Below are positions 2,303-49,579 of a DNA stretch of 64,000 bases, in pieces. Source of the DNA: Ilumatobacteraceae bacterium (GTDB taxonomy: Bacteria > Actinomycetota > Acidimicrobiia > Acidimicrobiales > Ilumatobacteraceae). The stretch covers positions 59,254 to 123,253 of the forward strand of contig JAGYKR010000005.1 of assembly GCA_018401375.1 (NCBI GenBank). The letters run 5' to 3'. Below the pieces are notes generated by a model that was not told the DNA's origin, did no database searches, and saw only the letters and a list, made by a program, of their open reading frames with translations. Made by a program: the position numbers and the translations under genes. Numbering within the stretch: the first letter of the stretch is position 1; each line of letters begins with the position of its first letter.

Positions 2303-2573
2303 CGTCCACCCATCCTGCCAAAAGTTCTCACCACAACGAGGCTAACGGCGAGGCTGAGGCTGCGATCCGCCACCTCTGATCCCGAGATCCGATGGGGCTT
2401 CACGCGACGAAGGCCGGCACCAACCCCCCGATGGCACCAGCCCCGTCGGCGCCCCGAACCTCTCGGTGCGACTCAACACTTCACACTCTAGGCGATCTCA
2501 GGTGATGAGAAAAGTGTCACACCCAATTTGTTCAGCCGGACACTCTGCTGCCGGGACTCTCTGCCGGGAAGAT

Positions 2574-3416
2574 TTACCCAAGTTCCCTGCTGCGTTGGGC
2601 TGCGGCCTCAACTGCAGCCTCAATCGCTGCATGAAAGCCGTGGGCTTCTAAGGCCGCGATTCCCGCTGCGGTTGTGCCGCCCGGCGAGGTGACCATGGCC
2701 CGCAAACCCACCGGATCTCCCCGCTGAGCAAGGAGTTCGGCTGATCCTGATAACAACTGGCGGACCATCCGATCAGCCATCTCTGCTTCGATCCCTGCTG
2801 CGCAGGCCGCAGCGGTCAATGCCTCAGCGAACAAAAAGACGTAGGCCGGCCCCGAACCGGTGACGGCGGTGACAGCATCAAAAAGATCCTCGGAGATCCG
2901 AACACAGGACCCGACCCCCATCAGGATGTGTTCGGCCCAACCGAGATCGGCCTCCGTCGCGTGACGTCCACCGGTGATCGCCGCCACCCCTTGGCCAACG
3001 AGTGCTGGCGTGTTGGGCATCGCCCTGATCACCGCAACAGAAACGTCGTGATCACCGAAGTCAGCACCTGCGGCAACATCAATGGCAGCATCAATGGTCG
3101 TCGTGGAGATTCCCGCTGCGATCGACAACAGGCGCCGAGCGCCGGCTCGGGCAGCAGCAACTGCCACTGCGGCGATCTGCGGTGGCTTCACCGCCAGCAC
3201 GGCCCCGTGACAGGCCGGCACCTTGTCGGTCACCACAACCCCGGGAAACTCAGCACGCAACCAGTCGCGACGCTCCGGCGACAGCTCCACCACACCCAAG
3301 GTCTCAGCGGCCGTGCCCGCTGCGAGAAGTCCTCCGATCAGCGCAGCACCCATGTTGCCGCCGCCGATGAACACGAGTTCCCGAGGCGAATCGATGGATT
3401 CAAACTGTTCGGCCAT
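2574..3416 (-). CDS. proC: pyrroline-5-carboxylate reductase
   Basis: 280 aa. Contains FIGGGNMGAALIGGL (NADP-binding), AVKPP, MPNTPALVGQG and the C-terminal SPGGTT motif. Confidence 0.9.
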   Translation of the reverse strand: MAEQFESIDSPRELVFIGGGNMGAALIGGLLAAGTAAETLGVVELSPERRDWLRAEFPGVVVTDKVPACHGAVLAVKPPQIAAVAVAAARAGARRLLSIAAGISTTTIDAAIDVAAGADFGDHDVSVAVIRAMPNTPALVGQGVAAITGGRHATEADLGWAEHILMGVGSCVRISEDLFDAVTAVTGSGPAYVFLFAEALTAAACAAGIEAEMADRMVRQLLSGSAELLAQRGDPVGLRAMVTSPGGTTAAGIAALEAHGFHAAIEAAVEAAAQRSRELG

Positions 3417-3536
3417 GGGGGCTCATGCTAGGAGAACGAAGTGGTCCGGGCGGGATCTGGGTTACGACCTCCCCGATGGGCCCGCCCGGACGCACTCATC
3501 TGTGCGACCAAGACACGGGCCCGGAAGACGCGCGGA

Positions 3537-4013
3537 TCAACCCGTGAAGCGACTGGCGAACCCGATCGAAAGTAACGCCCGAAAACATTGCTCCACTGTG
3601 GCGTACAACGTGCCGAGCAGGCGGTCGAGTTCGGATTCGGAAACCTGGGCTACCGGCATCTCCCCGCGGAGGAAGATCGCATCTTCCATCCCGATCGAGA
3701 AGTGGGCTCCCACCAAACGGTCGTTGCGTCGCAAAAGGTTCTCGTAGAGGGCCTCGGCGTTCTCTTCCGGCGCCGGCATCACATAGGTCTCGTAACGCAA
3801 GGTTCGTTGGCCGAGGGTCAACCAGATCGTGGTGAACTCCTTGTCCTGACCGCGCATGCGCACGTACCAGCGAGGATCGCCAGACGGCGTGTCGTCACTG
3901 GTCCCACGATCGATAGCTGCGATTTCGGGGGTCTCGACGGCGATCTGGTCCAACCATAGAGTCACCTGTTCGGCCAATCCGGCCTGTTCCACGGAGGTGT
4001 AATAGTCGCTCAT
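3537..4013 (-). CDS. YbjN-domain protein (putative sensory transduction regulator family)
   Basis: 158 aa. Overlaps the mshA stop by 4 nt. A YbjN-like gene follows mshA in mycobacteria (Rv0486-Rv0487 synteny, from memory). Confidence 0.55.
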   Translation of the reverse strand: MSDYYTSVEQAGLAEQVTLWLDQIAVETPEIAAIDRGTSDDTPSGDPRWYVRMRGQDKEFTTIWLTLGQRTLRYETYVMPAPEENAEALYENLLRRNDRLVGAHFSIGMEDAIFLRGEMPVAQVSESELDRLLGTLYATVEQCFRALLSIGFASRFTG

Positions 4014-5263
4014 CCACAGACCACCAAACGGTGTTCGCGGTCCTCGGTATCGGTCAGATCCAAATACAACCGGCGCAGGCGCGCCGCTGCGAAACCCCAG
4101 GTGTAACGGCTCGCCCGATCAGCGGCCATGCCTGACATGGCTGCAGCCCGCAGCGGATCAGAAAGAATCTCCACGATCGCCGCAGCGAAATGCTCCGGTC
4201 GGCGATCGGGTACGAGCACCCCGGTGACATCGTGATCCACCAAAGACAACAGGCCGCCCACCGCACTGGCAACCACCGGGATTCCGCAGGCCGCAGCCTC
4301 CAGAGCTACGAGACCGAAACTCTCGCTACGGCTCGGGACCACCACCACGTCAGCGGCTCGGTAGTAGGTGGACAAAATATGATGTGGTTGAGGCGGCACG
4401 AACACCACCTGAGATCCGAGCCCAAGATCGTCTACCAGGCCTTCCACCAAAGCGACCTCAGCATCGCCTTCGGCCCCGCTCGAACCCCCGATGATGTACA
4501 GCACGGCATCGCGACCACTATCGGTCTGGGTCACTAAGTGCAAGGCACGCACCGCCACATCAGGACCCTTGAGCGGCTGGATCCGACCAACGAACACCAG
4601 CATCGGAACCTGAGGATCAATCCCGAGGGCGTCGCGGGCACCGCCGCGATCTCCGGGGGCGAACAACGCGTGCTCCACCCCAGGGGCGATGATCTCCACC
4701 CGGCCGGCCGGATCTCCATAATGATTCCGAAAGAGTTGCTCTTCTTCCTCACAACTCACGCAGATCGCGTCGGAGCACGCAACGATCTGGGCCTCGGCCA
4801 CATCACGGCTGATGGGTTCGGGGTCACCCATCTCGGCTTTGACCCGAGCCATCGTGTGGAAAGTCATGACGAACGGGATGTCGAGGGCGTGTTTAATCCG
4901 ATGACCCACCATCCCGCTCAGCCAGTAGTTGGCATGCACCAGATCAGCGCCACCGATGGACTCCAGATGGGCCAATACGCCCTCGGTGAACTCTTCGATC
5001 ACGTCTCCGAGCGCCTCTTTGGGTAGGTGGTGCGGGCCGGCCTCGATGTGGACCACGCGATGCCCCGGCTCCACCACAACCTCCGGGGCGAGACCCTCGC
5101 GATCGGCGCGGGTGTAGGTCACACAATCGATTCCAGCCTGCGATAACGAGGACACCAACTCGCGGACATAGACGTTCATCCCTCCACTGTCCCCCGACCC
5201 CGGCTGAGTCAGCGGTGAGGTATGGAGCGAGATGATGGCGACGCGCTGCACGGGGTCATTCAA
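4010..5263 (-). CDS. mshA: D-inositol-3-phosphate glycosyltransferase (mycothiol biosynthesis)
   Basis: 417 aa GT4 protein. The N-terminus RVAIISLHTSPLTQPGSGDSGGMNVYVRELV is the MshA signature. Confidence 0.85.
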   Translation of the reverse strand: MNDPVQRVAIISLHTSPLTQPGSGDSGGMNVYVRELVSSLSQAGIDCVTYTRADREGLAPEVVVEPGHRVVHIEAGPHHLPKEALGDVIEEFTEGVLAHLESIGGADLVHANYWLSGMVGHRIKHALDIPFVMTFHTMARVKAEMGDPEPISRDVAEAQIVACSDAICVSCEEEEQLFRNHYGDPAGRVEIIAPGVEHALFAPGDRGGARDALGIDPQVPMLVFVGRIQPLKGPDVAVRALHLVTQTDSGRDAVLYIIGGSSGAEGDAEVALVEGLVDDLGLGSQVVFVPPQPHHILSTYYRAADVVVVPSRSESFGLVALEAAACGIPVVASAVGGLLSLVDHDVTGVLVPDRRPEHFAAAIVEILSDPLRAAAMSGMAADRASRYTWGFAAARLRRLYLDLTDTEDREHRLVVCG

Positions 5264-5940
5264 TCGTCCGAAACCCGACCCGTCGAATCGGGCCTTTGGG
5301 AATCGGCACCTTCAGATCCCCATTCGCCGGGTTCCAGTTCATCTATTTCATCTAGTTCCGGCTCATGGAGTTCCGGCTCATCCCTATCGAGGAGGCTGTC
5401 CACACTGGCCTCGCCGTCGCGGTACCGGCGCACTAGTTCGGCGCTGAGCGCATCGAGAACTTCGTACCGGGACTGGCGGTTCCGTGAGACACCTCGCTCA
5501 AACTCCGTGATCGCAGCGAGAAGAGCCTGTAACTCATCTGTGGTGAGGTTCTCCGCCCGGCTATAGCCATGTTCGGCACAGACACGTTCGAGTTCGTCGA
5601 GCAATGGGTGGCTGTCCACCGGTTCCACCGGCCGCGGCGGCCGGGCCGGACCACCGGTCAGATGGGTGGACAGGATCGCACCCAGATCCCCTGTGATATC
5701 GCCACTGATCTCGCCACTACCCTCGGCGACCACGCTGCGATCGGGATGGATCTCGAGGAAACGAGCCGCCAAAACGTCGCACCGGGCCTGTGCAATCCGG
5801 CGGACGTAGGAAACCACATCATCCTCGGCTTGAAGTCTGCTGCGCAGGCTGCGAAGTTCGCCGAGTTCGAGACCCGGCACGTTGAGATTCGACACATTCA
5901 CATCCAGCAGATGTGGATTCACGTCCTCAAATCCGCCCAT
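5260..5940 (-). CDS. RsiG-like protein (candidate c-di-GMP-binding anti-sigma factor), acidic C-terminal tail
   Basis: 226 aa. Residues 40-55, DDVVSYVRRIAQARCD, fit [DE]x3Sx2Rx3Qx3D. Residues 148-163, ERGVSRNRQSRYEVLD, fit Ex3Sx2Rx3(Y)x3D. The stop codon overlaps the mshA ATG (ATGA). Confidence 0.45.
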   Translation of the reverse strand: MGGFEDVNPHLLDVNVSNLNVPGLELGELRSLRSRLQAEDDVVSYVRRIAQARCDVLAARFLEIHPDRSVVAEGSGEISGDITGDLGAILSTHLTGGPARPPRPVEPVDSHPLLDELERVCAEHGYSRAENLTTDELQALLAAITEFERGVSRNRQSRYEVLDALSAELVRRYRDGEASVDSLLDRDEPELHEPELDEIDELEPGEWGSEGADSQRPDSTGRVSDD

Positions 5941-5982
5941 GGCCCTTGCTCCTCATCTGCCTGTCTCCTCCAACACCCATGA

Positions 5983-6219
5983 TCAACCGCCTGACACCGG
6001 GGGGAGTACCGCAACTTCATCGGTGGCTTTCACCAGTGTCTCCGGGCCGGCAGCCTCACCATTAACCCAGATCCGACAGGTCGCAAGAACGGCCGAAAAC
6101 CCTGCTCCGTATCGGCTCTCCGCCTCGGCCAGCACCTGGCCTACCGAGTCCCCCACCATCTCGTCGCGCCCTGTGCCCGCAGCTTCGCGGGCCGCCGCAA
6201 AAAGACGCAGTATGGCCAT
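5983..6219 (-). CDS. MoaD/ThiS-family sulfur-carrier protein
   Basis: 78 aa ending in ...VAVLPPVSGG, the C-terminal Gly-Gly of ubiquitin-fold sulfur carriers. Confidence 0.7.
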   Translation of the reverse strand: MAILRLFAAAREAAGTGRDEMVGDSVGQVLAEAESRYGAGFSAVLATCRIWVNGEAAGPETLVKATDEVAVLPPVSGG

Positions 6220-6242
6220 GTGCCCAGTGTAATGGCGTTACC

Positions 6243-6869
6243 TTGTTCCTTATGGCCGCCAGATCAGCTCCTCTTTTGCTGATCCGCCATGGCCAGACCG
6301 AATGGAACCTGATGAAGAGATGGCAGGGTCGGGCCGAGTCCCAGCTCACCGACCTCGGTCGGGCGGAAGCAGCGCGCGCTGGCGTGCACCTCGCCGCGAT
6401 GGGTCCCTTCGATGAGATCTGGGCCAGCCCTTTGATCCGAGCTCGCGACACCGCTGAAATCTTGTCCACAACCATTGGGACTACACCAATCCACATCGAC
6501 CTCCGCCTGATCGAAACCGATGTCGGGGCTTGGGAGGGTTTGACCTTGGCGGAACTGGAACGGGGATGGCCCGGGTATCTGGCCCAACGCCGCCAACCGG
6601 AGGGTTTCGAATCCGACGCTGAAGTGATCGGCCGGATCACGTCGTTTAGCGAGGAACGAATCGCTTCTGGTCGACGCTGCTTAGCGGTATGCCACTCCGG
6701 CGTGATGCGCACGCTGCGGCGCCATCTCGGGGTCACCGATCATCGGATCAGCAATCTGGGCGGCTACTGGTTAGACCGCGGCGAGTTGCATCCTTTGCAG
6801 GCCAGCGAACTGTTCTCCTTCGTAACCGCCGCAGCACTCAACGAGTCCTCTCATACCGATAGTCTTTGA
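6243..6869 (+). CDS. histidine phosphatase family protein (phosphoglycerate mutase-like)
   Basis: LLLIRHGQTEWN catalytic RHG motif, with CHSGVMR later. The start may be the Met at 6252. Confidence 0.8.
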   Translation: MFLMAARSAPLLLIRHGQTEWNLMKRWQGRAESQLTDLGRAEAARAGVHLAAMGPFDEIWASPLIRARDTAEILSTTIGTTPIHIDLRLIETDVGAWEGLTLAELERGWPGYLAQRRQPEGFESDAEVIGRITSFSEERIASGRRCLAVCHSGVMRTLRRHLGVTDHRISNLGGYWLDRGELHPLQASELFSFVTAAALNESSHTDSL

Positions 6870-8378: not shown

Positions 8379-8744
8379 CTAGGACTCGGAGCCCTCCGTG
8401 GTGGGTTCAGAGCTTTCCGCCGCCGCTGCCAGATCGTCGGCGAGTTCGTCCACCTCATCTGCTTGGAGGGGCAAGCTGATGTGAATAGAGCGACCGAGGA
8501 GATGGGCGCCGAGAGGAGCAGCGAGAAACTGCAACACCACCACTAATGCGAGCGCCAGCACCGGTCCTAGCTCGCGCAGTTCGAGAGCCGCGCCGAGCGA
8601 GACCAACAGCAATCCAAGGGTGGGTCCCTTCGCAGCCGGATGCATACGGGCGTACACGTCGCCAAAGCGCAAAGTGCCGATCCCGGCCAGCATCGTGAAC
8701 ACGGCACCGAGGACAATCAGCACGCCTGCAATAAAGGTCAGCAT
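8379..8744 (-). CDS. mnhG: Na+/H+ antiporter subunit G
   Basis: 121 aa. LAGIGTLRFGDVYARMHPAAKGPTLG is the MnhG/PhaG signature. It is the last gene of the mrp operon. Confidence 0.85.
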   Translation of the reverse strand: MLTFIAGVLIVLGAVFTMLAGIGTLRFGDVYARMHPAAKGPTLGLLLVSLGAALELRELGPVLALALVVVLQFLAAPLGAHLLGRSIHISLPLQADEVDELADDLAAAAESSEPTTEGSES

Positions 8745-8995
8745 CAGCTTCCCCTGCGTTCCATGAAGCGGGCTAACACACCGGTGCCGACAAAACCGAC
8801 GAGAGCCACTACTAACACGATGTCGATCTCAAATGCGCTATCGGTACGTGCTGCGGCCACGATCACACCGATGGTCACCGTGGAAGCCAAGCCGTCTAAG
8901 GCCACGATCCGATCGGGCAGGCTCGGGCCCTTTAAGAGGCGCAGCACAAATGCCAAGGCTCCGATCGACAACATTGCCAATGCAATCGTCGTCAT
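8744..8995 (-). CDS. mnhF: Na+/H+ antiporter subunit F
   Basis: 83 aa with 3 TM helices (LRLLKGPSLPDRIVALD), positioned between E and G. Confidence 0.8.
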   Translation of the reverse strand: MTTIALAMLSIGALAFVLRLLKGPSLPDRIVALDGLASTVTIGVIVAAARTDSAFEIDIVLVVALVGFVGTGVLARFMERRGS

Positions 8996-9603
8996 CGTTG
9001 CCTACCTCTGTTATCAGAGTTGCCGGCACCAGAAATACCGGCATCAGAAAACTGGGTGAGGGCTTCGGTGGTGCCGAATGCCCGGATCGCTAACTTGGCC
9101 AATGCCGTCATCTCTGCACGGACCCGTTCGGGATTGTGAAGGTGCAGCACATGCACATAGATCGTGGTCGGGCGGCGCCGAACCTCAATAGTCAATGAGC
9201 CTGGCGTGAGGGTCAAAGCGTTCGCAATCAAGGTCACTACCGCATCGCTGCAATCCCGAAGGTCCAGAGCCAAAATCCCTGGCTTGATCGAGTTCCGTGG
9301 AGTCACCACTTCCCAGGCGAGCATCACATTGGATTGCACCACCTTGACGGCGAAATAGATCAGGAACCACAGTGCCCAGAGCGGGCGGATCCGCACGGCA
9401 CCTTGGGCTTCACGACCCGTCATTGGAAGCCTGGCCACGGTCAACACACCGATCGCTACCGCTACACCACCGAGCAGGTTCGCCCAAGTGAAACTCCCCC
9501 ACAGGGCCGACCACAGCAGCACAAACCACCCGATTAGCACGAGATTACGGGCCGGATGTTTGAACCAATAGGCCCAGATCGAACCCGATATCGGAGCGGT
9601 CAC
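8992..9603 (-). CDS. mnhE: Na+/H+ antiporter subunit E
   Basis: 203 aa. Membrane N-terminus followed by LTPGSLTIEV...IYVHVLH, typical of MnhE. Overlaps both neighbours by 4 nt. Confidence 0.8.
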   Translation of the reverse strand: MTAPISGSIWAYWFKHPARNLVLIGWFVLLWSALWGSFTWANLLGGVAVAIGVLTVARLPMTGREAQGAVRIRPLWALWFLIYFAVKVVQSNVMLAWEVVTPRNSIKPGILALDLRDCSDAVVTLIANALTLTPGSLTIEVRRRPTTIYVHVLHLHNPERVRAEMTALAKLAIRAFGTTEALTQFSDAGISGAGNSDNRGRQR

Positions 9604-11099
9604 GGACGACCTCCCATTACGGCAGAGACATACCTGATCGGCTCCAAAAGATCTTCTGCAGCACGCTCACTGAGCGAGTACAAGGGCCGCGCGAAGATCA
9701 TCACGGCCACACCGATCACCACGACCGCAGCGGTGGAGGCCATCATCAGCGCCGGCCCACCGAGCGTGTCGGAGGTGTCGGGGCGTTGGCGGGGCCGATC
9801 GTCAGGATCTCCCCAAAAAGCCCCGGCCCAGATTTTGGTCATCGAATACAAGGTGAGCAAAGACACGAATGCGGCTACGCCCACCACCACCCACTCAGAA
9901 GACTGCACCCCAGCATCAAACACAGCGAACTTGGCTACGAAACCACCGAACGGGGGCAGTCCGGCCAGGCTGAGCGCCGGTAGAGCAAACATCAGCCCTA
10001 ACAATGGCGCACCCCGGACCAATCCACCCACCTCTGACAGGCGTGAAGACCCGCCACGGCGCTCTACCAGGCCGGTCACCAGCAGTAATGAGGTCTTCAA
10101 GATGATGTTGTTAAAGGTGTAAAACACCGCAGCCGCAAGACCCGCCACAGTGAACAATCCGAGCGCAAAGATCATGTATCCGATCTGGCTGACGATGTGG
10201 AACGACAAGATCCGCTTCATATCGTCCTGTGCGATTGCGCCGAATACACCCACCGCCATGGTCAGCGAGGCAACCACCAGCAATAAGGTTCCGAGTTGCG
10301 CCTCCGCCGGGAACAGCAAGGTTTGGGTGCGGATGATGGCGTACACCCCGACCTTGGTTAACAACCCGGCGAAGATCGCCGTGACTGGTCCCGGGGCTGT
10401 GGGGTAGCTATCGGGCAGCCAAAAAAACAGCGGGAACAAACCGGCTTTGATACCGAACACCACGAGCAGTGCAACCGCAAACATCACCTGTGTGCCCTGC
10501 GGCAACTGGGGAATCCGGCCGGCCAGGTCAGCGAAGTTGACCGTCCCGGTGGCGGTGTACACCAAAGCCAAAACCACGATGAAAAAAGTGGAGGCAACCA
10601 GCGAAATCACCACATAGGTCATCCCGGATCGCACCTGATCAGCGCGACCACCCATGGTGATCAACACATAACTAGCCGCCAACATCATCTCGAAGGCCAC
10701 GAACAAGTTGAACAAGTCCCCGGTGGTCAAACTCGCGGCCACACCTGAGGCGAGCACCAAATACATCGGATGGAAAGCAACGTGTTGGCGTTCCACTCCC
10801 CCTTGGCCGATCGCAAAGATCAGCACCGCCAACAGCATCAACGCTGAGGTGACGAGCATGATCCCCGACAGGCGATCCACCACCAAGGAGATTCCGATCG
10901 GTGCGGGCCATCCTCCCGATTGGGCCACGAGGATGCCATCGCGATCAGCGCCGATCAACAATGCGATGCTGATCGCCGTGGTGCTGGCGAGCGCAACGAG
11001 GCCGATCACTCGTTGGGCTTGCCGTGACCGACCCACGATCACCGAAATCGCTGCTGCGAGGAGCGGAATCGCGATTGGAAGAGGAATCAGTGCTGTCAT
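9600..11099 (-). CDS. mnhD: Na+/H+ antiporter subunit D (NuoN/NuoL-like)
   Basis: 499 aa polytopic protein of the proton-conducting membrane transporter family. Confidence 0.9.
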   Translation of the reverse strand: MTALIPLPIAIPLLAAAISVIVGRSRQAQRVIGLVALASTTAISIALLIGADRDGILVAQSGGWPAPIGISLVVDRLSGIMLVTSALMLLAVLIFAIGQGGVERQHVAFHPMYLVLASGVAASLTTGDLFNLFVAFEMMLAASYVLITMGGRADQVRSGMTYVVISLVASTFFIVVLALVYTATGTVNFADLAGRIPQLPQGTQVMFAVALLVVFGIKAGLFPLFFWLPDSYPTAPGPVTAIFAGLLTKVGVYAIIRTQTLLFPAEAQLGTLLLVVASLTMAVGVFGAIAQDDMKRILSFHIVSQIGYMIFALGLFTVAGLAAAVFYTFNNIILKTSLLLVTGLVERRGGSSRLSEVGGLVRGAPLLGLMFALPALSLAGLPPFGGFVAKFAVFDAGVQSSEWVVVGVAAFVSLLTLYSMTKIWAGAFWGDPDDRPRQRPDTSDTLGGPALMMASTAAVVVIGVAVMIFARPLYSLSERAAEDLLEPIRYVSAVMGGRP

Positions 11100-11515
11100 C
11101 GACGGTCCTCTTCGGCGGCCTGGGCGGCCTCCGCGAGAATTTCATCGGCGATGTCGCGGTCCACGCGCTGTTGACGAGCGATGAAGCGGTCTTCCACGTC
11201 ATCTTCCACCACATCGTCGTTAGTGAGCTGCCATGACCGAAACCCGAGTGCGAGCAGGAACAGGGTGATTCCAAAGGTGATCACGATCGCCGTTAGGGCG
11301 AGGGCTTGAGGCAAAGGGTCACTAAAGCCGGCTGGGTCTCCGGTGCCGATCAACGGAGCCGTGCCGCGCCGACCACCCGAGACCATCAACAACATGTTCC
11401 CGGCGTGGCCGAGTAGACCCACGCCGATGATGATCCGCGACAGGCGGCGCTGCAACAGCAACCAAGTGCCACAGCCCACGAGGACAGCAGCCACAAAAGC
11501 CACCAAGACACTCAT
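11096..11515 (-). CDS. mnhC: Na+/H+ antiporter subunit C (NuoK-like)
   Basis: 139 aa with 3 TM helices (GVGLLGHAGNMLL) and an acidic tail. Confidence 0.85.
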   Translation of the reverse strand: MSVLVAFVAAVLVGCGTWLLLQRRLSRIIIGVGLLGHAGNMLLMVSGGRRGTAPLIGTGDPAGFSDPLPQALALTAIVITFGITLFLLALGFRSWQLTNDDVVEDDVEDRFIARQQRVDRDIADEILAEAAQAAEEDRR

Positions 11516-11537
11516 GAGAGATCCCTCATCTCAGGCC

Positions 11538-12086
11538 TCACAGCTGGTCCCTCCGGCTTCGACGCAACTGCAGTTCGCGAATTTGCTCAAGTTCGAAGAG
11601 GTCAGAGACCACCGAGTCCGCTTCTAAAGCATCGCCACGCACACTGGCTCCCACTGCTTCGTCAATGGCCTCGTCATCACCAAAGGCTTCGAACATCATC
11701 AGGATCAAACCGAGCACCACTAGGTACACCCCGATATCAAACGGCAGAGCAGAGGTGGCCTTGACCGTCCCCAAGATGGCGATATCGGCCTCCCAGGCCG
11801 CATGTTCAAGCAGAGCGTTACCCGACAGGATTGGCAGGATCGCAGTCAGCACACCGATCAGTAATCCGCCACCCATGATCGTCCACGGTCGCAGCGGGAA
11901 GGCGCGGCGCACCTCGGCTACTCCCCCCGCCACGTAACGGAACGAGATCGCCGCCCCAGCGGTCAGCCCGCCAACAAACCCGCCGCCGGGCTGATTGTGA
12001 CCGGCGAACAAGAAGTACAGCGAGAGCACGAGGATGCTGTGGAAGACCACGCGCACCGAGGTGTCCACCACTAACAACCGCTTCAT
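11538..12086 (-). CDS. mnhB: Na+/H+ antiporter subunit B
   Basis: The start is trimmed to MKRLLVVDTSVRVVFHSILVLSLYFLFAGHNQPGGGFVGG, the MnhB domain. Its ATG at 12086 overlaps the mnhA TGA (ATGA). Confidence 0.8.
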   Translation of the reverse strand: MKRLLVVDTSVRVVFHSILVLSLYFLFAGHNQPGGGFVGGLTAGAAISFRYVAGGVAEVRRAFPLRPWTIMGGGLLIGVLTAILPILSGNALLEHAAWEADIAILGTVKATSALPFDIGVYLVVLGLILMMFEAFGDDEAIDEAVGASVRGDALEADSVVSDLFELEQIRELQLRRSRRDQL

Positions 12087-14566
12087 TGATCCATCTCCCC
12101 CGCCACTGGAGCCGCCGATGGAACGGGTTCGTGTTCGCTCCATTCGTAGTCGGCCACCTCATCGGCGGCATCCGAGCCGAGCATCAAACGGCGCCGTCCC
12201 GCACGGGCCAACGCCACCGCACCCACTCCGGAAACCACCAACACGGTGATCTCACCCAAGGTGTCCAAACCGCGGAAGTCCACAAGAATCACGTTGACGA
12301 TGTTGTTGCCTTTGGCCTCAGGGGCACTCCGGGCGATCATCTCCACCGAGATGTTGGCTTCGCTCACCGAGTCACGGCTGCCAGCAGCGACAAGGGCCAG
12401 CACAAATACCGACACCGCCGCAGCCACCGAAACCGTCAACCGGATCGGGCGAGCCACAGCCGGACTGCGGTCGGCCCACCGGGTGGGCAAGAAGCGCAGC
12501 ACCAACACGAAGAGCACCGTGGCCAAGGTTTCGATTACGAGTTGGGTGAGGGCCAAATCCGGCGCTCCCTGAACGATGAAGAATCCCGCCATTGCGTAGC
12601 CGACTGCACCGAGCATCAGCGCCGCTGAGATCCGACGCTTCACGATCGAGGCTCCGAGGCTCGCGGCGATGACCAAAGCAGCCAAGGGCACATGGAGTGG
12701 CACGTCCACAAGCGGGGGCAGGTCCGACCAAGCCGATAGGGCAGGGATCAGCGGTGCGATCGCCACCACGCTGATGATGATCAACAAATAGATCGGGAGC
12801 GACCCGCTTTGCACCACGGCGGTCAATCGCTTGGAACCGTCGGTCACGCTGCGCAAAGCCACCAAGAACCCGCGTTCGGCACTCGGGATCCACGAGATCG
12901 CATCGGAGAACCTTCGCTGCAGCCGAGCCACGGGGGCTCGTTTCCAGACGAGCAACAATCCGACACCAATCACGAGTACCGACAGCCCGAGCGCCGCATT
13001 AAATCCGGCCCAGAGTTTCACGGTAGACGGAGAGGCCGTCGGATCAAGGGCGGTCGTTGCCGCAGCCACCAACGGATCCACGAGTCGGGGTGCGAGTCCG
13101 AGCAGCACAGTGAGCACCGTCAGCACCGCCGCTGGCCCGAGGAACATCGCCGAGGGAGCGTGGGCCTCCGCGCTCCGATTGGGCTTATCTGCCACACCGA
13201 AATGACCGAGCAGGCCGAGCACAAATCGGGCCGAATAGGCGAAGGTCAGCATCGACCCGACCACGATCACACCCAACACCACACCCGAACCGGTGAAGTC
13301 CCCGTATGTGATGTAGGTGTCGAGAGCCTTTTCCTTACCAACGAACCCCAGCAGCGGAGGAAGGCCCGCCATCGACGCCGCCGCCAAAATACCCACGACC
13401 ACCGTTGGGCGCCACGAACTACCAAAGCCGTGAAGTTCACGAATATCGCGGGTACCGACCTCATGGTCCACGATGCCCACCACCATAAACAGGGCCGCCT
13501 TAAACGCACCGTGGGCCAGGATCAGCACCACTGCCGCTTGAGCGATTTTGTACTCGCCGGTCCCAAACATCAGCATCAAGAAACCGAGTTGGCTGATCGT
13601 CCCGTAGGCCAGTAGCAGCTTGAGGTCATATTGGCGCATCGCCCGCAGACCACCGATCACCATGGTCACGGCCCCGACACTCAGCACCAGCACCCTCCAC
13701 TGGCCAGTGGTGGCCAGGATCGGGGCGAGGCGGGCTACCAGATACACACCGGCTTTGACCATCGTCGCCGAGTGCAAGTAGGCGCTAATCGGGGTTGGTG
13801 CCACCATCGCGCCAGGAAGCCAACTGCCAAACGGGGCTTGGGCGGATTTCGTGAACGCCCCGACCAGCACACAGATCACACCGGCGGCGATCACCCCGTC
13901 AGTAGGGGGATTGAGGAGAAGTTCGGAGATCAGATAGGTGCCCGCGCTCTGGCCGATGATGATCAGTCCGACCAACATCACCAGGCCACCGGCCCCCGTG
14001 ATCAGAATGGCCTGCAGCGCCGCAGCCCGGGCCCGCGGGTTGCGGTCATCGTTGCCGATCAGCAGATACGAAGTGATTGAGGTCAGCTCCCAGAACACGA
14101 ACAGCGCCAACAGATGGTCAGAAAGAACCACTCCGAGCATCGCTCCAGCGAACAAGGTCATCAGACCAGCGAGTCGGGCCGTGCCGGGCTTGGGATACGA
14201 GAAATATCCCATCGCATAGATGCAGACCATCAGGCCGATGCCTGAAACCAACGAAACCATCACCAGTCCGAAGCCATCGAGACGCAGGTCCAGTTGGAGG
14301 CCGAGCTGTTCCACCCACATCCAAGAGAAACTCACCGGCACACCGTCACTCATCCCCGAGCCACCACTGCTGGAGCCGATCACCCCGGAGGCCTGAGTGA
14401 TCGCCCAGCCGACTGTGAGAGCAGGAGCGAGCGCCGCCACTGCGAACGCTCGACGCCCCAGACGATCGCCGGACCCCAGAATCGCAACACCGATGGCAAG
14501 GTGAGTGAGGAGGATGAACAACAACATGAGGAAAGGGGTGATGACCAGATACCCAGCGGGAATCAA
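12083..14566 (-). CDS. mnhA: Na+/H+ antiporter subunit A (NuoL-like)
   Basis: 827 aa polytopic protein. It is the first gene of the mnhABCDEFG operon, and all seven genes are contiguous or overlapping. Confidence 0.9.
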   Translation of the reverse strand: MIPAGYLVITPFLMLLFILLTHLAIGVAILGSGDRLGRRAFAVAALAPALTVGWAITQASGVIGSSSGGSGMSDGVPVSFSWMWVEQLGLQLDLRLDGFGLVMVSLVSGIGLMVCIYAMGYFSYPKPGTARLAGLMTLFAGAMLGVVLSDHLLALFVFWELTSITSYLLIGNDDRNPRARAAALQAILITGAGGLVMLVGLIIIGQSAGTYLISELLLNPPTDGVIAAGVICVLVGAFTKSAQAPFGSWLPGAMVAPTPISAYLHSATMVKAGVYLVARLAPILATTGQWRVLVLSVGAVTMVIGGLRAMRQYDLKLLLAYGTISQLGFLMLMFGTGEYKIAQAAVVLILAHGAFKAALFMVVGIVDHEVGTRDIRELHGFGSSWRPTVVVGILAAASMAGLPPLLGFVGKEKALDTYITYGDFTGSGVVLGVIVVGSMLTFAYSARFVLGLLGHFGVADKPNRSAEAHAPSAMFLGPAAVLTVLTVLLGLAPRLVDPLVAAATTALDPTASPSTVKLWAGFNAALGLSVLVIGVGLLLVWKRAPVARLQRRFSDAISWIPSAERGFLVALRSVTDGSKRLTAVVQSGSLPIYLLIIISVVAIAPLIPALSAWSDLPPLVDVPLHVPLAALVIAASLGASIVKRRISAALMLGAVGYAMAGFFIVQGAPDLALTQLVIETLATVLFVLVLRFLPTRWADRSPAVARPIRLTVSVAAAVSVFVLALVAAGSRDSVSEANISVEMIARSAPEAKGNNIVNVILVDFRGLDTLGEITVLVVSGVGAVALARAGRRRLMLGSDAADEVADYEWSEHEPVPSAAPVAGEMDQ

Positions 14567-41042: not shown

Positions 41043-42914
41043 GTGCCTCGCACCCGACCAGCGGCCGTCCTGTGGGATATGGACGGCACGCTGATCGACA
41101 CCGAGCCCTATTGGATGGCCTCGGAACGTGACCTCGTTGCTGACTTTGGTGGCACCTGGTCCGAGGAACATGCGCGGGCAATCGTCGGCTTCGACCTCTT
41201 GGACGCGGCGCGCTACATCGTCGCTCACTCGGAGGTGGATCTCGCTCCGGCAGCGATCGTGGAGAGATTGCTCGACGGGGTGATCAGCCGGCTGGCGCTC
41301 GGGATCCCTTGGAGGCCAGGCGCCCGAGAGCTCCTCGAAGAGCTCAACAAGCTTGAGATTCCCTGTGCTTTGGTGACGATGTCGTGGCGACGATTCGTAG
41401 AACCCGTGCTGGCACAGCTCCCACCTCACACCTTCGCAGCGGTGATCACCGGCGATGAGGTCACCATGGGTAAGCCGCATCCCGAGCCCTACCTGCGAGC
41501 CGCCGAACTGCTCGGTGTACCTGCTGATCGGTGCGTGGCTATCGAGGACTCTCCTACCGGTGTGGCCTCGGCCCTCGCCGCTCAGTGTGCGGTGGTGGGT
41601 GTCCCTAATGTCCGTGAGATTGAAGATCAGCCTGGGGTCTGGATCCGCGATTCGCTGACCCAAGTCAGTGCTCAGGATCTGGCAGGTCTCAGCCGTGACA
41701 GCCTGAGCCGTGGCAGTTTGAATAGAGACAATCTGAATCGCAACGGACTGCGGCGTGACCGGCCTCGGCGCCCGCCGTTGCTCTTCGCCCTAGGAGCCCT
41801 CGCCGTCCTCGCTATTGGGATCGGTCTGGCTCGCGAGCTGAACCAAGGGGCCCCACCCGGGGTCCCGGCGATCGAGCTCGATGTGTGGGCTCCCTATTGG
41901 ACTCTCAACGATTCGGCGCCCGAGCTTCCCGGCCGGATCACACAGATGCGTGAGGTGTCTCCGTTCTGGTTTCGAGCGCTCGGGGTGACATCGATCCAGA
42001 TCGACCCCAATGTGAATCGTCGATTAGCCGAGGAGTTCATGGAGGTAGCCCGCAAATCTCGGGCCTTGCTGATCCCCTCGGTGGTGGATGCGATGCCCGC
42101 CGGACAGATGGCCTCCATCCTCGCTGATCCAGTCACCCGCAGCCGGCACGTGAACGCGCTCGTGGAGTTCACTACTGAAGGCAACTACGACGGCCTTGAC
42201 ATTGACTACGAACAGTTCGCCTTCGCTGATGGCCGCGCCTCTTGGGAGACCACCCGACCCAACTGGGTTGCCTTCATCACCGAACTGGCTGCAGCCCTTC
42301 AAGAACGTGACCTGATCCTCGTGGTCAGCATCCCTCCGGTCTACGACGCCGGTCGCACCGCTGCGAGTGGGTATTGGGTCTATGACCACGGAGCGATCGC
42401 AGAGGTGGTGGACCGGATCCGCCTGATGGTCTATGACTTCTCCACTTCGCGTGCGGGGCCGATCGCACCGTTTGACTTCGTGCAACGTTCGATTGACGGC
42501 ACTTTGTCGGTGGTCAAGGATCCCTCCAAACTGGTGCTCGGGATCCCGGCCTACGGATACAACTGGCCGATCTCCACTACCGGTGTGTGCCCAGGGCCGG
42601 TAGAAGGCCGCACCACGGTGACCACCCGTTCCATCCACGACCTGCTCGCTCGCCGGGGCGGCACACCGGAATATCAACCCTTGACCGGTGAATGGAACCT
42701 GCTCTACGAACTTGAATATCGAGAGGGAGATGTCAGCTGTGTCCAGACCCGTCAAGTCATTTACGTGGACGGAGACGGCCTCGCTGAACGGATCATGATG
42801 GCCCGGGAGGCTGGCCTCGGCGGCGTGGCGCTGTGGGCGCTCGGTTACGAAGATGACATCGTCTGGGATCAGATCCGCAGCGCGCTCTCAACGCTCAGCG
42901 AGGAAGGGCAGTAG
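41043..42914 (+). CDS. fusion protein: HAD-IA phosphatase domain, basic pentapeptide-repeat linker, TM helix, glycoside hydrolase family 18 domain
   Basis: HAD motifs are LWDMDGTLIDTE, VTMS, GKPHPEPY and IEDSPTG. Residues 216-240 form (L[SNR]R[DGN]x) x5. The TM helix is LLFALGALAVLAIGIGLA. The GH18 catalytic motif DGLDIDYE lies at residues 383-390, with MVYDF and LGIPAYGYNW. Confidence 0.7.
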   Translation: MPRTRPAAVLWDMDGTLIDTEPYWMASERDLVADFGGTWSEEHARAIVGFDLLDAARYIVAHSEVDLAPAAIVERLLDGVISRLALGIPWRPGARELLEELNKLEIPCALVTMSWRRFVEPVLAQLPPHTFAAVITGDEVTMGKPHPEPYLRAAELLGVPADRCVAIEDSPTGVASALAAQCAVVGVPNVREIEDQPGVWIRDSLTQVSAQDLAGLSRDSLSRGSLNRDNLNRNGLRRDRPRRPPLLFALGALAVLAIGIGLARELNQGAPPGVPAIELDVWAPYWTLNDSAPELPGRITQMREVSPFWFRALGVTSIQIDPNVNRRLAEEFMEVARKSRALLIPSVVDAMPAGQMASILADPVTRSRHVNALVEFTTEGNYDGLDIDYEQFAFADGRASWETTRPNWVAFITELAAALQERDLILVVSIPPVYDAGRTAASGYWVYDHGAIAEVVDRIRLMVYDFSTSRAGPIAPFDFVQRSIDGTLSVVKDPSKLVLGIPAYGYNWPISTTGVCPGPVEGRTTVTTRSIHDLLARRGGTPEYQPLTGEWNLLYELEYREGDVSCVQTRQVIYVDGDGLAERIMMAREAGLGGVALWALGYEDDIVWDQIRSALSTLSEEGQ

Positions 42915-43643
42915 GAACGGTCGGCAACGATGCGCAAACTCACTCATCTCGCGCAGACCGAGCACCTGCAGCCCGTGGAGTTTTAGTTCTCCAAGCAGTT
43001 GGGTTCGATAGTTCTTGATCGTGTTCACACTCAGCCCCGAATGTTGGGCCACCTCGACGTAGGTCGGTACCTCGATAATTTCGATCAAGGCTGTCCACAG
43101 TTTCGCGTGGCCCCGGTGGGCCACCAGTCGAGCGAAGTTATGCGGGGTTCTCCACGGGTTACGTTCGGCCGGCAGCAGCATCCCAAACACAGGATCCACC
43201 TCTGCGTATCCCCGTTTGAGTACCGAGCTGATCTGAGCGATCTGATAGTTCAGCGCAGCTCCCTTGGATAACACCAGTTTGATCGGCAATAGATCCCATG
43301 CGTCGCGCAAGATTGCCTCCGTCCAGCCGTCTCCCTGGGTCAAGATACCCAAGGTTGTGTGCGGCCAACGGCGATGAATCTCGTAGAGGGCGCTCAGCCC
43401 AGTGTCGTGCTCAGCCGGAAAGGCGAGGTCAACGATCGCAAGATCGAAAGGAGCCAGATTGTGCTCCCCTGACACGTCCACCGGATTGGCTGTGTCCACT
43501 GAATCAGCCGTAACGATGAGTGTTCGAACCTCAGCGATCGATCCCGCCACTGTCACCTCGTGACCGAGTTTGGAGGCGATCGCTTGAGCGAACAATTCAA
43601 TCAAGGAGGTGGCGTCGTCCACAAGAAGAACTCTGGCCATCAT
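42888..43643 (-). CDS. response regulator with LuxR/GerE-like C-terminal HTH (atypical long linker)
   Basis: REC features are LLVDD, IVDLAFP, GILTQ and LSKG. The C-terminal TYVEVAQHSGLSVNTIKNYRTQLLGEL is the HTH. The ATG at 43643 overlaps the kinase TGA. Confidence 0.7.
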   Translation of the reverse strand: MMARVLLVDDATSLIELFAQAIASKLGHEVTVAGSIAEVRTLIVTADSVDTANPVDVSGEHNLAPFDLAIVDLAFPAEHDTGLSALYEIHRRWPHTTLGILTQGDGWTEAILRDAWDLLPIKLVLSKGAALNYQIAQISSVLKRGYAEVDPVFGMLLPAERNPWRTPHNFARLVAHRGHAKLWTALIEIIEVPTYVEVAQHSGLSVNTIKNYRTQLLGELKLHGLQVLGLREMSEFAHRCRPFLLPFLAER

Positions 43644-44953
43644 CTGCTCCACCGCCGCAGGCCGAAGCCCGCTACCGGCACTAACTCCGGCTCTATCACC
43701 TCAAGGATCAACCGATGCGGAACGACCACCTTCATCAAGGACCCACCGGGCACCGGCTCCCGACTCACGCCGGTCCTACCAAGTATCGAGATCAGATCTT
43801 CGAGGCCTCGCCCTGCCGGAACCGTGTGTAAATCAAATCCACCCGCGTCATCGCTCACCCGGATCTCTACCCCCGCTGGCTCCACACGAACATCGAGTCC
43901 GATCTCCTGGGCACCAGCATTCATCGCATTAGAGAACAAAGTGGATAACACCCGATTGATTAACCGCCCTGTGTCGGTGTCCACCATCACATCCACCTGA
44001 TCGAACTGAGGGATCGGGGACACCGTCACTCCGAGGTGTACCGAGCGTCGGATGTGGAGTTGGATCAGCGATGCGATTCGTGTCGGGCCCGACTCGATCA
44101 GATCACCGATCTGTTCCACTCGTAGTCGATGGTCTAGGTCCCGCAACCTGCCCAAGGCCCATTCATCAATCTGCGGACGCGACTCAAGTTCCATGATCAT
44201 GAAACTGACCTCCGACAACAACTGGTCATGTACCCACTGGGCTCGCTGCTGCAGATGTGCGCGACGCACACCAACGAGATAACCCACTGCCTCCTTCGCC
44301 ATCTTGTGGCCGAGGTAACACAAACCGCCGTGTACTGCCGCTGCGGTGACCCCTGCGATCACGACCAGAGCACCACTGCGCACGACCCCAGTAATCGCAA
44401 TCCCTAGAGCCGGGAGAAGCAATATCGCAGACACATAACCCACCCGCAGCGCATGTTCGGTTCTGCGCGCTTTCGGAGGCTTCGGATGGATCCGACCGCC
44501 TCGTCGGATCGTCAACTCAGCACCGATCACCGCACCGAGCGGTACCACCCCAAGCAGGTTCCAAGATGGCAACAGCAGCAACATGGCGGTTGCCACGGTG
44601 AAGATTGCGATGGAACGCAAGGTGGGACTTCCAGCGATCACGTGTGGGTGTTGAGGTGAAACGAGGCGATGTCGAAGACACATCAACTCTGCGATCAACA
44701 GCATCGCCGCCCCGATCGTGGCCGCTAGGGCCCATGGCCACATCGCGTGTTGCCCACCCAGAGCACCAAGAGCACCCAGAGCACCATGATCACCAAGATC
44801 ACCGTGATCACGGGGACCCCCGAAGCCACCGACGTGAACGGTCCACACCATGATCATCGTGAAGAGCACCGCAGTCACCACAGTCAGCGAGCCGAGCACG
44901 CCAAGCAGCCACCGTTCGGCCAGCGCAGGCGCCGTTTTTAGATCATCCTTCAT
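43640..44953 (-). CDS. membrane sensor histidine kinase (HisKA_3/NarX-class)
   Basis: 437 aa with about 6 TM segments. The H-box is WVHDQLLSEVSF, the N-box is FSNAMNAGA, G1 is VSDDAGGF and G2 is GRGLEDL. Confidence 0.7.
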   Translation of the reverse strand: MKDDLKTAPALAERWLLGVLGSLTVVTAVLFTMIMVWTVHVGGFGGPRDHGDLGDHGALGALGALGGQHAMWPWALAATIGAAMLLIAELMCLRHRLVSPQHPHVIAGSPTLRSIAIFTVATAMLLLLPSWNLLGVVPLGAVIGAELTIRRGGRIHPKPPKARRTEHALRVGYVSAILLLPALGIAITGVVRSGALVVIAGVTAAAVHGGLCYLGHKMAKEAVGYLVGVRRAHLQQRAQWVHDQLLSEVSFMIMELESRPQIDEWALGRLRDLDHRLRVEQIGDLIESGPTRIASLIQLHIRRSVHLGVTVSPIPQFDQVDVMVDTDTGRLINRVLSTLFSNAMNAGAQEIGLDVRVEPAGVEIRVSDDAGGFDLHTVPAGRGLEDLISILGRTGVSREPVPGGSLMKVVVPHRLILEVIEPELVPVAGFGLRRWSR

Positions 44954-48518: not shown

Positions 48519-49172
48519 ATGGCTCGTACCGCAAAGGCCGATTATCGGGCGCTGATGACCCAGGTGGCCCGCAGGCGCCTGGAGAACGGCGAGGAGGTTG
48601 CTGTGACGAGCATTGCCTCAGAACTTGACGTCAGTCCGGGGCTCGTGCATTTCTACTTCGGTGATCGCCAGTCACTCGTCAATGCCGCTTGGCATGAGAT
48701 CTTGATGGCGCACGTTACTGACGATCTCGCCGCCGTTGACCAACTCACCGAGGAGGCGAACTGGTCAGGTTTGCGATCACTCACCGATCAGGTCTTTCAC
48801 TCTTCACGAGATGCCATCCATCTCGCTCACTTGCGGGCCTCGGTGGATTCCCAGCAGAACGCTGAGTTAGCCCAAATCTTTGATGCCGTGACCGACGTGA
48901 CTACTCGCTTCTGGAAAGATCAGATCTCGGCTGGGGTTGCAGTCGGGGTAGCTCGCACACCCCTCGACCCTCACGCGTTAGCGATCTTGATCATGTCGGT
49001 CCCACTTGGGGTATCCGTAGCCAAACCTCGACTCACGGAGGATGAGCGGATGGCTCTCAGCGAGGCCTGGTCCGTCATGTTGCGAGCGGTGCTAGAGCCA
49101 GGGTTCTCCATGGATGCGGTCACGACCTCCGCCACAGAGAACCCCAGCTCCTCACACATCACATCCGCCTAG
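48519..49172 (+). CDS. TetR-family transcriptional regulator
   Basis: 217 aa. The N-terminal HTH is VTSIASELDVSPGLVHFYFGDRQSLV. Confidence 0.8.
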   Translation: MARTAKADYRALMTQVARRRLENGEEVAVTSIASELDVSPGLVHFYFGDRQSLVNAAWHEILMAHVTDDLAAVDQLTEEANWSGLRSLTDQVFHSSRDAIHLAHLRASVDSQQNAELAQIFDAVTDVTTRFWKDQISAGVAVGVARTPLDPHALAILIMSVPLGVSVAKPRLTEDERMALSEAWSVMLRAVLEPGFSMDAVTTSATENPSSSHITSA

Positions 49173-49531
49173 TTCAGCATCGAAGCCGAACAAGGTGAAT
49201 CGAGGATCTCAAGCAGGGTTCCGTTTGCATTTACATGGAACTTTGTTGAGACCCGGTTTATATATCCACCCGTCACAAGCGTCTGAAGCCGGGCAGGACC
49301 TGTTGCTCCATCAATTGCCTCTAGTCCGGTTTCCGCAAAGTACGCAGAGACCGCGGTTTCAAGTGCTCGCCCGTCGGCCCTGCAGGCCGCTGTGGTACCC
49401 CGGTCGGTGATTCCACCCACCGCAAAGACCACCACAGTGGACAACACGCCCAACAACACGATGACGATTAAGAGTTCAATCAATGTGAACCCTGCGTCGT
49501 CCCCTCCGCCAAGAGTTGATCGCTTCTTCAT
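49169..49531 (-). CDS. prepilin-type N-terminal cleavage/methylation domain protein (type IV pilin/pseudopilin)
   Basis: 120 aa. The leader MKKRSTLGGGDDAG is followed by FTLIELLIVIVLLGVL, giving G-1, F+1 and E+5. There is one Cys. The gene looks visibly AT-richer than its surroundings. Confidence 0.8.
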   Translation of the reverse strand: MKKRSTLGGGDDAGFTLIELLIVIVLLGVLSTVVVFAVGGITDRGTTAACRADGRALETAVSAYFAETGLEAIDGATGPARLQTLVTGGYINRVSTKFHVNANGTLLEILDSPCSASMLN

Positions 49532-49579
49532 ATTTTCCTTCCGCCGTTAGTCCCCCTGTGCGGTATCTAAACAGGGCTG

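Follow-up and report, generated by a model that had tools for sequence, protein, structure and literature searches.

The rsiG open reading frame

The window, as the analysed DNA is called here, is a stretch of 64,000 nucleotides from a bacterium of the Ilumatobacteraceae (Acidimicrobiia, Actinomycetota; contig JAGYKR010000005.1, positions 59,254 to 123,253). An open reading frame (ORF) of 226 amino acids runs from ATG to TGA on its minus strand, at 5260–5940 with the stop codon included. The ORF, termed rsiG, encodes a twin-motif protein of the RsiG family; RsiG of Streptomyces venezuelae (vnz_19430; structures 6PFJ and 6PFV) is an anti-sigma factor of sigma-WhiG that is armed by cyclic diguanosine monophosphate (c-di-GMP). 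The assignment is based on the ORF listing, the Pfam profile PF22802, an alignment to the S. venezuelae chain 6pfj_T and the homologues. All positions are those of the window, whose gene map is a longest-ORF map, and window features lie on the minus strand unless stated otherwise.

The protein carries the c-di-GMP-binding signature of RsiG twice. The first copy, DDVVSYVRRIAQARCD, covers residues 40–55 (5776–5823) and is a full match to the published signature, D40-x3-S44-x2-R47-x3-Q51-x3-D55; its first acidic residue is D, where S. venezuelae has E. The second copy, ERGVSRNRQSRYEVLD, covers residues 148–163 (5452–5499) and reads E148-x3-S152-x2-R155-x3-Y159-x3-D163. It has E148, S152, R155 and D163 and so fits the strict published pattern at four of five positions, with Tyr at the guanine-stacking position instead of Q or H. 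An earlier note on this DNA had given the same ORF, the same two motif positions, their spacing of 108 residues and the replacement of the published Q by Y159, and these readings stand. Shuffling of the window protein produces the strict motif in 0.1% of cases and a pair of relaxed copies in none of 20,000, and the motif is unique to the RsiG ORF among the 62 predicted window proteins (20,467 residues). The twin motif thus exceeds chance.

Motif 1 is situated on helix alpha1 (residues 26–64, 5749–5865), the first arm of a predicted coiled coil. This block has a predicted local distance difference test score (pLDDT) of ∼90 in the AlphaFold2 model and aligns to alpha1 of S. venezuelae RsiG. Motif 2 is situated on helix alpha5 (residues 134–174, 5419–5541), the second arm, which is modelled at a pLDDT of 90–95 and has the second motif helix of 6PFJ as its counterpart in the alignment. 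Between the helices is a linker segment, HLTGGPARPPRP (residues 93–104, 5629–5664), which forms invariant or near-invariant columns in the homologue alignments A1 and A2. By analogy with the linker of S. venezuelae RsiG, a possible role of this segment is to make contact with the sigma factor or to protect the ligand. The protein ends in an acidic C-terminal tail (residues 185–226, 5263–5388), delimited by composition, pLDDT and the ends of relatives. The earlier note had described it as very acidic, and its 42 residues do include 17 D/E and three K/R.

Family membership and predicted fold

By profile, sequence and predicted fold, the window protein is a genuine twin-motif member of the RsiG family. 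The profile search that the earlier note had proposed as a check on RsiG identity gave a match to PF22802 in two stretches at 58.9 bits (E 4e-16), the gathering cut-off being 27 bits. No NCBIfam model was matched by the protein. A phmmer search of all PDB sequences aligned residues 22–184 with residues 23–175 of S. venezuelae RsiG (6pfj_T, E 3e-12) and brought each motif into register with its counterpart; the chain of 6PFJ and 6PFV was deposited under the name 'AmfC protein'. A database clustered at 90% holds 1118 homologues, and all 120 among the matches listed carry PF22802. At 50% identity, 1220 representatives match, out of 1.84 billion proteins. Alignment A1 has 33 invariant columns, and these cover every motif residue except the stacking position of alpha5.

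A helical hairpin had likewise been put forward for checking by structure prediction, and the AlphaFold2 model, made with 59 homologues, does contain two long helices with one motif each. The predicted template-modelling score is 0.62; residues 26–64 and 134–174 are at pLDDT ≥90, and the linker and tail are of low confidence in this single-chain model. Comparison of the model with the PDB by Foldseek gave three matches at E < 1e-3, all of them RsiG chains of 6PFV (probability 1.00, template-modelling score 0.59–0.61, 32% identity), and all non-RsiG matches had E > 0.5. RsiG chains are therefore the sole significant folds in the PDB.

The window protein and S. venezuelae RsiG align end to end and share the two-helix core and a C-terminal SAE[LI].RRYR.GEA.VD.LL segment. 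They differ in several respects. Identity is ∼37% over the aligned columns, and alpha5 has Gln in S. venezuelae where the window protein has Tyr. The N-terminal region before alpha1 is ∼25 amino acids in the window protein vis-à-vis ∼60 in a Streptomyces sequence (P0274), and the acidic tail of 42 amino acids is an addition. The S. venezuelae gene context also differs, as neither an mshA nor a ThiS gene is present within 10 kb of rsiG. The window organism is most likely unicellular and non-sporulating, and its RsiG regulon must therefore differ from that of S. venezuelae.

Similarity to the single-motif, homodimeric RsiG of Rubrobacter radiotolerans (7LQ2–7LQ4), which controls type IV pili, is limited to helix alpha1 with motif 1 (residues 21–63, E ∼0.009). 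R. radiotolerans is a unicellular actinobacterium, as the window organism most likely is too, and genes for a pilin, PilC and PilB are also found in the window. The second motif helix of the window protein, unlike that of the R. radiotolerans form, is on the same chain, and the protein is therefore expected to be monomeric. FlgM, the classical anti-sigma-28 factor, is unrelated in sequence and fold and has no nucleotide ligand; no similarity to it turned up in the searches made here. FlgM targets the same sigma family (FliA/SigD/WhiG).

Occurrence in Acidimicrobiia

The best 80 species-representative genome loci were obtained by a profile scan whose query alignment was mixed and took in S. venezuelae RsiG; only loci of Acidimicrobiia type were returned. 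Nearly all are from Ilumatobacter, Ilumatobacteraceae, Acidimicrobiales or Actinomycetota metagenome-assembled genomes, at 46–58% identity. Relatives at 69–97% identity are found on metagenome contigs only. Almost all of the 80 loci conform to a restriction of RsiG to Actinobacteria. The two exceptions are by record title, 'Candidatus Azotimanducaceae' and 'Gammaproteobacteria' (L009 and L035), and both contigs have the typical Ilumatobacteraceae synteny. They are most likely mis-binned and no evidence of RsiG outside Actinobacteria.

Publications of 2020–2021 had already described the RsiG family, the twin-motif form and the occurrence of the family in Acidimicrobiales. Twin-motif RsiGs were reported in three of four Acidimicrobiales species, and the catalogue has rows for Ilumatobacter coccineus (YM304_37910), Acidithrix ferrooxidans (AXFE_25810) and Ferrithrix thermotolerans (Schumacher et al., PNAS 2021, PMC8325347). 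The novelty implied by the earlier note does not hold, as twin-motif RsiGs of Acidimicrobiales, including that of I. coccineus, were already in this 2021 catalogue. The window RsiG adds one member to a clade already published as having the twin-motif form, and as an RsiG homologue the gene adds little. The likeness to the catalogued proteins is by bacterial class and twin-motif architecture, as taken from the catalogue listing; the window protein differs in belonging to a distinct sub-clade (≤58% identity to the 80 best loci) and in having the acidic tail.

Proposed regulatory role

The ORF quite likely encodes a monomeric twin-motif RsiG of an uncultured, Ilumatobacteraceae-related actinobacterium of the Acidimicrobiia, with the steps that involve partner and ligand modelled on known systems. 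On the pattern of the S. venezuelae and R. radiotolerans structures, alpha1 and alpha5 would pair in antiparallel orientation and jointly grip a c-di-GMP dimer that is partly intercalated. The E, S, R and D residues that contact the ligand are invariant; at the stacking positions, alpha1 has Q and alpha5 has an aromatic residue, Y or F, that is fixed within the clade. If the solved complexes are a guide, RsiG loaded with c-di-GMP would sequester a WhiG2-type sigma factor of the sigma-28 family, encoded elsewhere in the genome, and a drop in c-di-GMP would free the sigma factor. According to the literature, RsiG never occurs without a WhiG homologue across 673 reference genomes, and its partners are of the WhiG2 clade. 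Published regulon precedents in unicellular actinobacteria are type IV pili, motility and c-di-GMP enzymes.

Several observations weigh against this proposal. The Foldseek superposition, with a root-mean-square deviation of ∼7.5 Å over ∼170 columns, is the basis for placing the motifs face to face, and Tyr at the alpha5 stacking position is outside the published signature. A tblastn search with residues 31–273 of S. venezuelae WhiG, a query recovered from the PDB alignment, found no WhiG/sigma-28 gene in the 64-kb window and none within 10 kb of rsiG in 84 related loci. A regular-expression search of the six-frame translation of the window found no GGDEF motif, and its EAL-like strings were non-specific; together with patterns for HD-GYP, PilZ and sigma motifs, the search yielded only a pilin signal in addition to these strings. 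The exact sigma-28/WhiG promoter consensus has no match in the window. With two mismatches allowed there are eight matches, 8.7 being expected, and a relaxed WhiG2 promoter pattern from a 2026 preprint gives 16 matches where 12.5 are expected; both are at chance level. None of the WhiG-type promoter matches is ahead of the pilus genes or the rsiG operon, and in the former respect the window also differs from R. radiotolerans. A literature search on Ilumatobacter with WhiG or FliA returned nothing relevant.

The pilus genes form a type IV pilus-like cluster at 49169–52452, 44 kb from rsiG, which recalls the Rubrobacter regulon. The cluster consists of a prepilin with an N-terminal methylation motif (49169–49531), a PilC-like T2SSF protein (49580–50647) and a PilB-like T2SSE ATPase (50647–52452). 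The ATPase has an MshEN match of 20 bits, below the cut-off of 23.1; MshEN is a c-di-GMP-binding domain. At 42888–44953, a 254-amino-acid protein with a weak receiver-domain match (22.6 bits, below cut-off) follows a 437-amino-acid protein that has no Pfam match, and the two could be a divergent two-component pair.

The mshA-like gene and its start

Directly downstream of rsiG, at 4010–5251, is a gene for an MshA-like glycosyltransferase of family 4 (GT4), which is probably MshA itself. Its best NCBIfam model is TIGR03449 (MshA, D-inositol-3-phosphate glycosyltransferase), at 389.2 bits; the equivalog cut-off of 462.5 is not reached, but MshA is by far the top model, the next-best scoring 126 bits. 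The best PDB matches are 3C48, 3C4Q and 3C4V (E 1e-81 over residues 6–407), which we take to be Corynebacterium glutamicum MshA, the depositors' name being 'predicted glycosyltransferases'. The designation 'MshA-like, probable MshA' follows from these closest structures and from the YbjN gene that overlaps the stop codon.

The earlier note had placed the start of this gene in an ATGA overlap with the rsiG stop codon and had proposed translational coupling. The adjacency to rsiG is upheld, but the overlap is not, as the ATG right after the rsiG TGA is out of frame with the glycosyltransferase. In-frame candidates are a TTG at 5263, which forms a TTGA overlap and is the mechanical ORF start, and a GTG at 5251. 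In dozens of relatives, the start codon is located three codons ahead of the conserved VA[VI]ISLHTSP sequence, and the equivalent residue is the first residue of C. glutamicum MshA. In the two closest loci (L089 and L090) the GTG is conserved and the ATG of the earlier note is ATA; in L090, the TTG is out of frame. By homology, the start of the mshA-like gene is most likely the GTG at 5251, eight nucleotides past the rsiG stop codon, and the two genes would be tightly packed without overlap. A public gene call (L001, 389 amino acids) begins at an internal Met and loses the conserved N-terminal VAIISLHTSP...GG motif.

Gene neighbourhood and conserved linkage

On the minus strand, rsiG is preceded, across a 42-nucleotide spacer, by a gene for a small ThiS/MoaD-like protein that ends in GG (5983–6219; Pfam ThiS 50.7 bits, NCBIfam moaD below cut-off). 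After the eight-nucleotide spacer and the mshA-like gene comes a YbjN-family gene (3537–4013; Pfam YbjN 54 bits), whose start overlaps the mshA-like stop by four nucleotides. The gene for ProC (pyrroline-5-carboxylate reductase; 2574–3416) is the end of a conserved block, and homologues at the same position carry P5CR_dimer and F420_oxidored domains. Judged by spacing only (42 nucleotides, eight nucleotides and a four-nucleotide overlap), the thiS-like, rsiG, mshA-like and ybjN genes are probably co-transcribed. A scan of 2400–6500 for sigma-70 promoters and terminators was uninformative.

The linkage between rsiG and the mshA-like gene is genuine and is maintained across Acidimicrobiia. A ThiS-like gene is found upstream of rsiG in all 80 Ilumatobacteraceae genome loci. 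In 78 of the 80, an MshA-like gene is found downstream: 54 have it within 200 nucleotides, 17 have it after an intervening XRE gene and seven have it at a greater distance; the remaining two loci are on truncated contigs. In nearly all loci ybjN is 3′ of the GT4 gene, and in gene-called relatives (L002–L004) the ThiS-like stop codon overlaps the rsiG start. The order rsiG, (xre), GT4, ybjN, proC recurs in other Acidimicrobiales. Outside Acidimicrobiia, synteny was compared in one species, S. venezuelae.

A gene for an XRE-family helix-turn-helix protein (HTH_31/HTH_3, 106–160 amino acids) is located between rsiG and the MshA-like gene in approximately one-quarter of the Ilumatobacteraceae loci. 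Examples are L002–L008 and others (e.g. L003, 10491–10883), and the gene is also present in L087 and L088 of other Acidimicrobiales. The window has no XRE gene at this place.

The earlier note had also stated that an rsiG–mshA linkage was not known to have been described, and a literature search agrees with it. No published description was found; RsiG and mycothiol were met together in one unrelated paper, and in the two papers on RsiG evolution mshA appears only as the Vibrio MSHA pilus. Acidimicrobiia are abundant and almost unstudied bacteria. The class-wide position of rsiG upstream of mshA-like and ybjN genes provides a testable hypothesis on the target of the switch in this class.

SodX-RsiG and ThiS-RsiG fusions

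In three loci of other Acidimicrobiales (L086–L088), RsiG makes up the C-terminal half of a 290–340-amino-acid protein. The N-terminal half in L086 and L087 is an S26 (S26/S24) peptidase, annotated in the source as a nickel-type superoxide dismutase maturation protease (SodX). Both domains match at L086 398–1288 and L087 8001–8993, and at L088 8001–8864 only the RsiG domain matches. The gene order in the three loci is a divergent sodN, the RsiG-domain gene, an optional xre, GT4, ybjN (absent from L086) and proC. About 20 clusters have the SodX-RsiG architecture (P0231 and P0394–P0410), with overall lengths of ∼270–340 amino acids, and no description of it was found. A few metagenome proteins (P0155, P0138, P0422 and P0424) are ThiS-RsiG fusions, in which the ...PPVSGG end of the ThiS part continues straight into RsiG. 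To serve as a sulfur carrier, a GG fused in this way would first have to be released by cleavage.

This raises the question of whether Acidimicrobiia have enlisted the RsiG fold for redox and thiol homeostasis. The expression or activity of RsiG would then be tied in function to mycothiol synthesis (mshA-like, ybjN), to the sulfur-carrier-like ThiS/MoaD-like protein and, in sister lineages, to the maturation of Ni-superoxide dismutase via the SodX-RsiG fusions, and the operon would be a regulatory unit that ties c-di-GMP/WhiG signalling to oxidative-stress defence. The near-constant ThiS-like and MshA-like neighbours in the 80 loci, the operon-like spacing in the window, the recurrence of the gene order in other Acidimicrobiales with RsiG fused to a SodX-type peptidase beside sodN, and the existence of ThiS-RsiG fusions all speak for such a role. 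On the other hand, rex, the hem genes, proC, ybjN and mshA constitute a conserved housekeeping block, and because of this the linkage may be mere inherited gene order. The S. venezuelae rsiG lacks both neighbours, and all c-di-GMP motif residues are kept in the window protein, so that the canonical function need not have changed. Some of the fusions are possibly gene-call or assembly effects; this doubt is countered by three independent contigs that translate intact, with both domains in L086 and L087, and by the number of clusters with the architecture. Recruitment of the fold to redox homeostasis is unlikely on balance. The narrower suggestion that the RsiG module is physically wired into oxidative-stress and thiol genes across Acidimicrobiia, via the operon with mshA and ybjN, the ThiS/MoaD-like gene and the SodX fusion beside sodN, is slightly less doubtful and is offered tentatively. 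If the arrangement is functional, second-messenger and sigma-WhiG signalling would have an undescribed link to redox defence, and SodX-RsiG would represent a domain architecture new to anti-sigma factors. The residual interest of the locus is in the class-wide rsiG–mshA linkage and in the two types of fusion.

The stacking position of the second motif

According to the published RsiG structures, the Gln of the motif is stacked against a guanine base, with His regarded as its equivalent in alpha1. In the 120 closest homologues, D40, S44, R47, Q51 and D55 of motif 1 are all invariant, as are E148, S152, R155 and D163 of motif 2. The alpha1 stacking residue in these homologues (119 scorable) is Q in 119, and that of alpha5 is Y in 82 and F in 37, never Q. 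Among 150 representatives at 50% identity (P0125–P0273), alpha1 has Q in 127 and H in six. Alpha5 is intact in 98 of them and has H in 56, F in 37, Y in three, Q in one and L in one; thus H, F or Y occupies the position in 96 of the 98. In 120 Streptomyces sequences (P0274–P0393), alpha1 has Q in all 120 and alpha5 has Q in 119 (119 scorable). The 2021 paper gives His in alpha1 as the sole common exception to the motif, which is at odds with these alpha5 counts.

The earlier note had regarded motif 2 as degenerate and as a possible evolutionary intermediate. According to this explanation, the window protein would stand between the single-motif dimeric and the twin-motif monomeric RsiGs, and its binding of c-di-GMP would be weakened or one-sided. 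The departure of Y159 from the strict published signature fits with it, as does the early branching of Acidimicrobiia among Actinobacteria. The counts do not: an alternation between Y and F that never admits Q indicates purifying selection for an aromatic ring, H, F and Y prevail in the part of the family closest to the window protein, and a uniform Q is found in Streptomyces only. In addition, stacking on guanine is done well by aromatic rings, and the window protein can be aligned along its entire length with S. venezuelae RsiG, which is monomeric. An intermediate state is very improbable. Because the clade consistently has Y or F and the other four residues of motif 2 are invariant, Tyr159 does not appear to be degenerate. 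From the sequence comparisons, it is a clade-fixed planar residue at the stacking position, with no sign of decay or of a transition between single- and twin-motif forms, and we infer that it is functionally equivalent to Q or H. The alpha5 consensus should be widened to E-x3-S-x2-R-x3-[Q/H/F/Y]-x3-D, as searches with a strict Q would miss most RsiG members outside Streptomyces.

A chance ORF or a coincidental motif in GC-rich DNA has next to no likelihood and is refuted by the homology evidence, for although an antisense ORF of 137 amino acids overlaps at 5569–5982 on the plus strand and long spurious ORFs are common at 61.6% G+C, more than 1000 homologues conserve length and motifs, the Pfam match and the synteny agree, and the helical model is confident.

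The acidic tail and adjoining genes

Most relatives, as well as S. venezuelae RsiG, stop 1–3 residues past the conserved ...VDSLL. The tail extension is confined to the sub-clade of the window protein (P0001–P0006) and is shorter in P0012 and P0014. In the sub-clade, it runs for 20–42 residues across the spacer that is intergenic elsewhere and reaches the mshA start. With a pLDDT of ∼51 in the AlphaFold2 model, the tail is probably disordered as well as lineage-specific. Its final 16 residues are conserved between the window and L090. Since this stretch coincides with the sequence immediately 5′ of the mshA start, it may be the DNA or RNA that is under constraint and not the peptide. An origin of the tail as a remnant of the XRE gene that relatives have between rsiG and mshA was considered and rejected, as the XRE protein has no tblastn match anywhere in the window.

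The rsiG block is adjoined by an operon for a multisubunit cation/proton antiporter of the Mrp/Mnh type at 8379–14566. Two syntenic relatives, L089 and L090, served to identify its domains (MnhB, MNHE, MrpF, PhaG and Proton_antipo_M). Over the wider region the window and these two loci have one gene order in common, namely Mrp, cyclophilin, His_Phos, ThiS, rsiG, mshA, ybjN, proC, rex.

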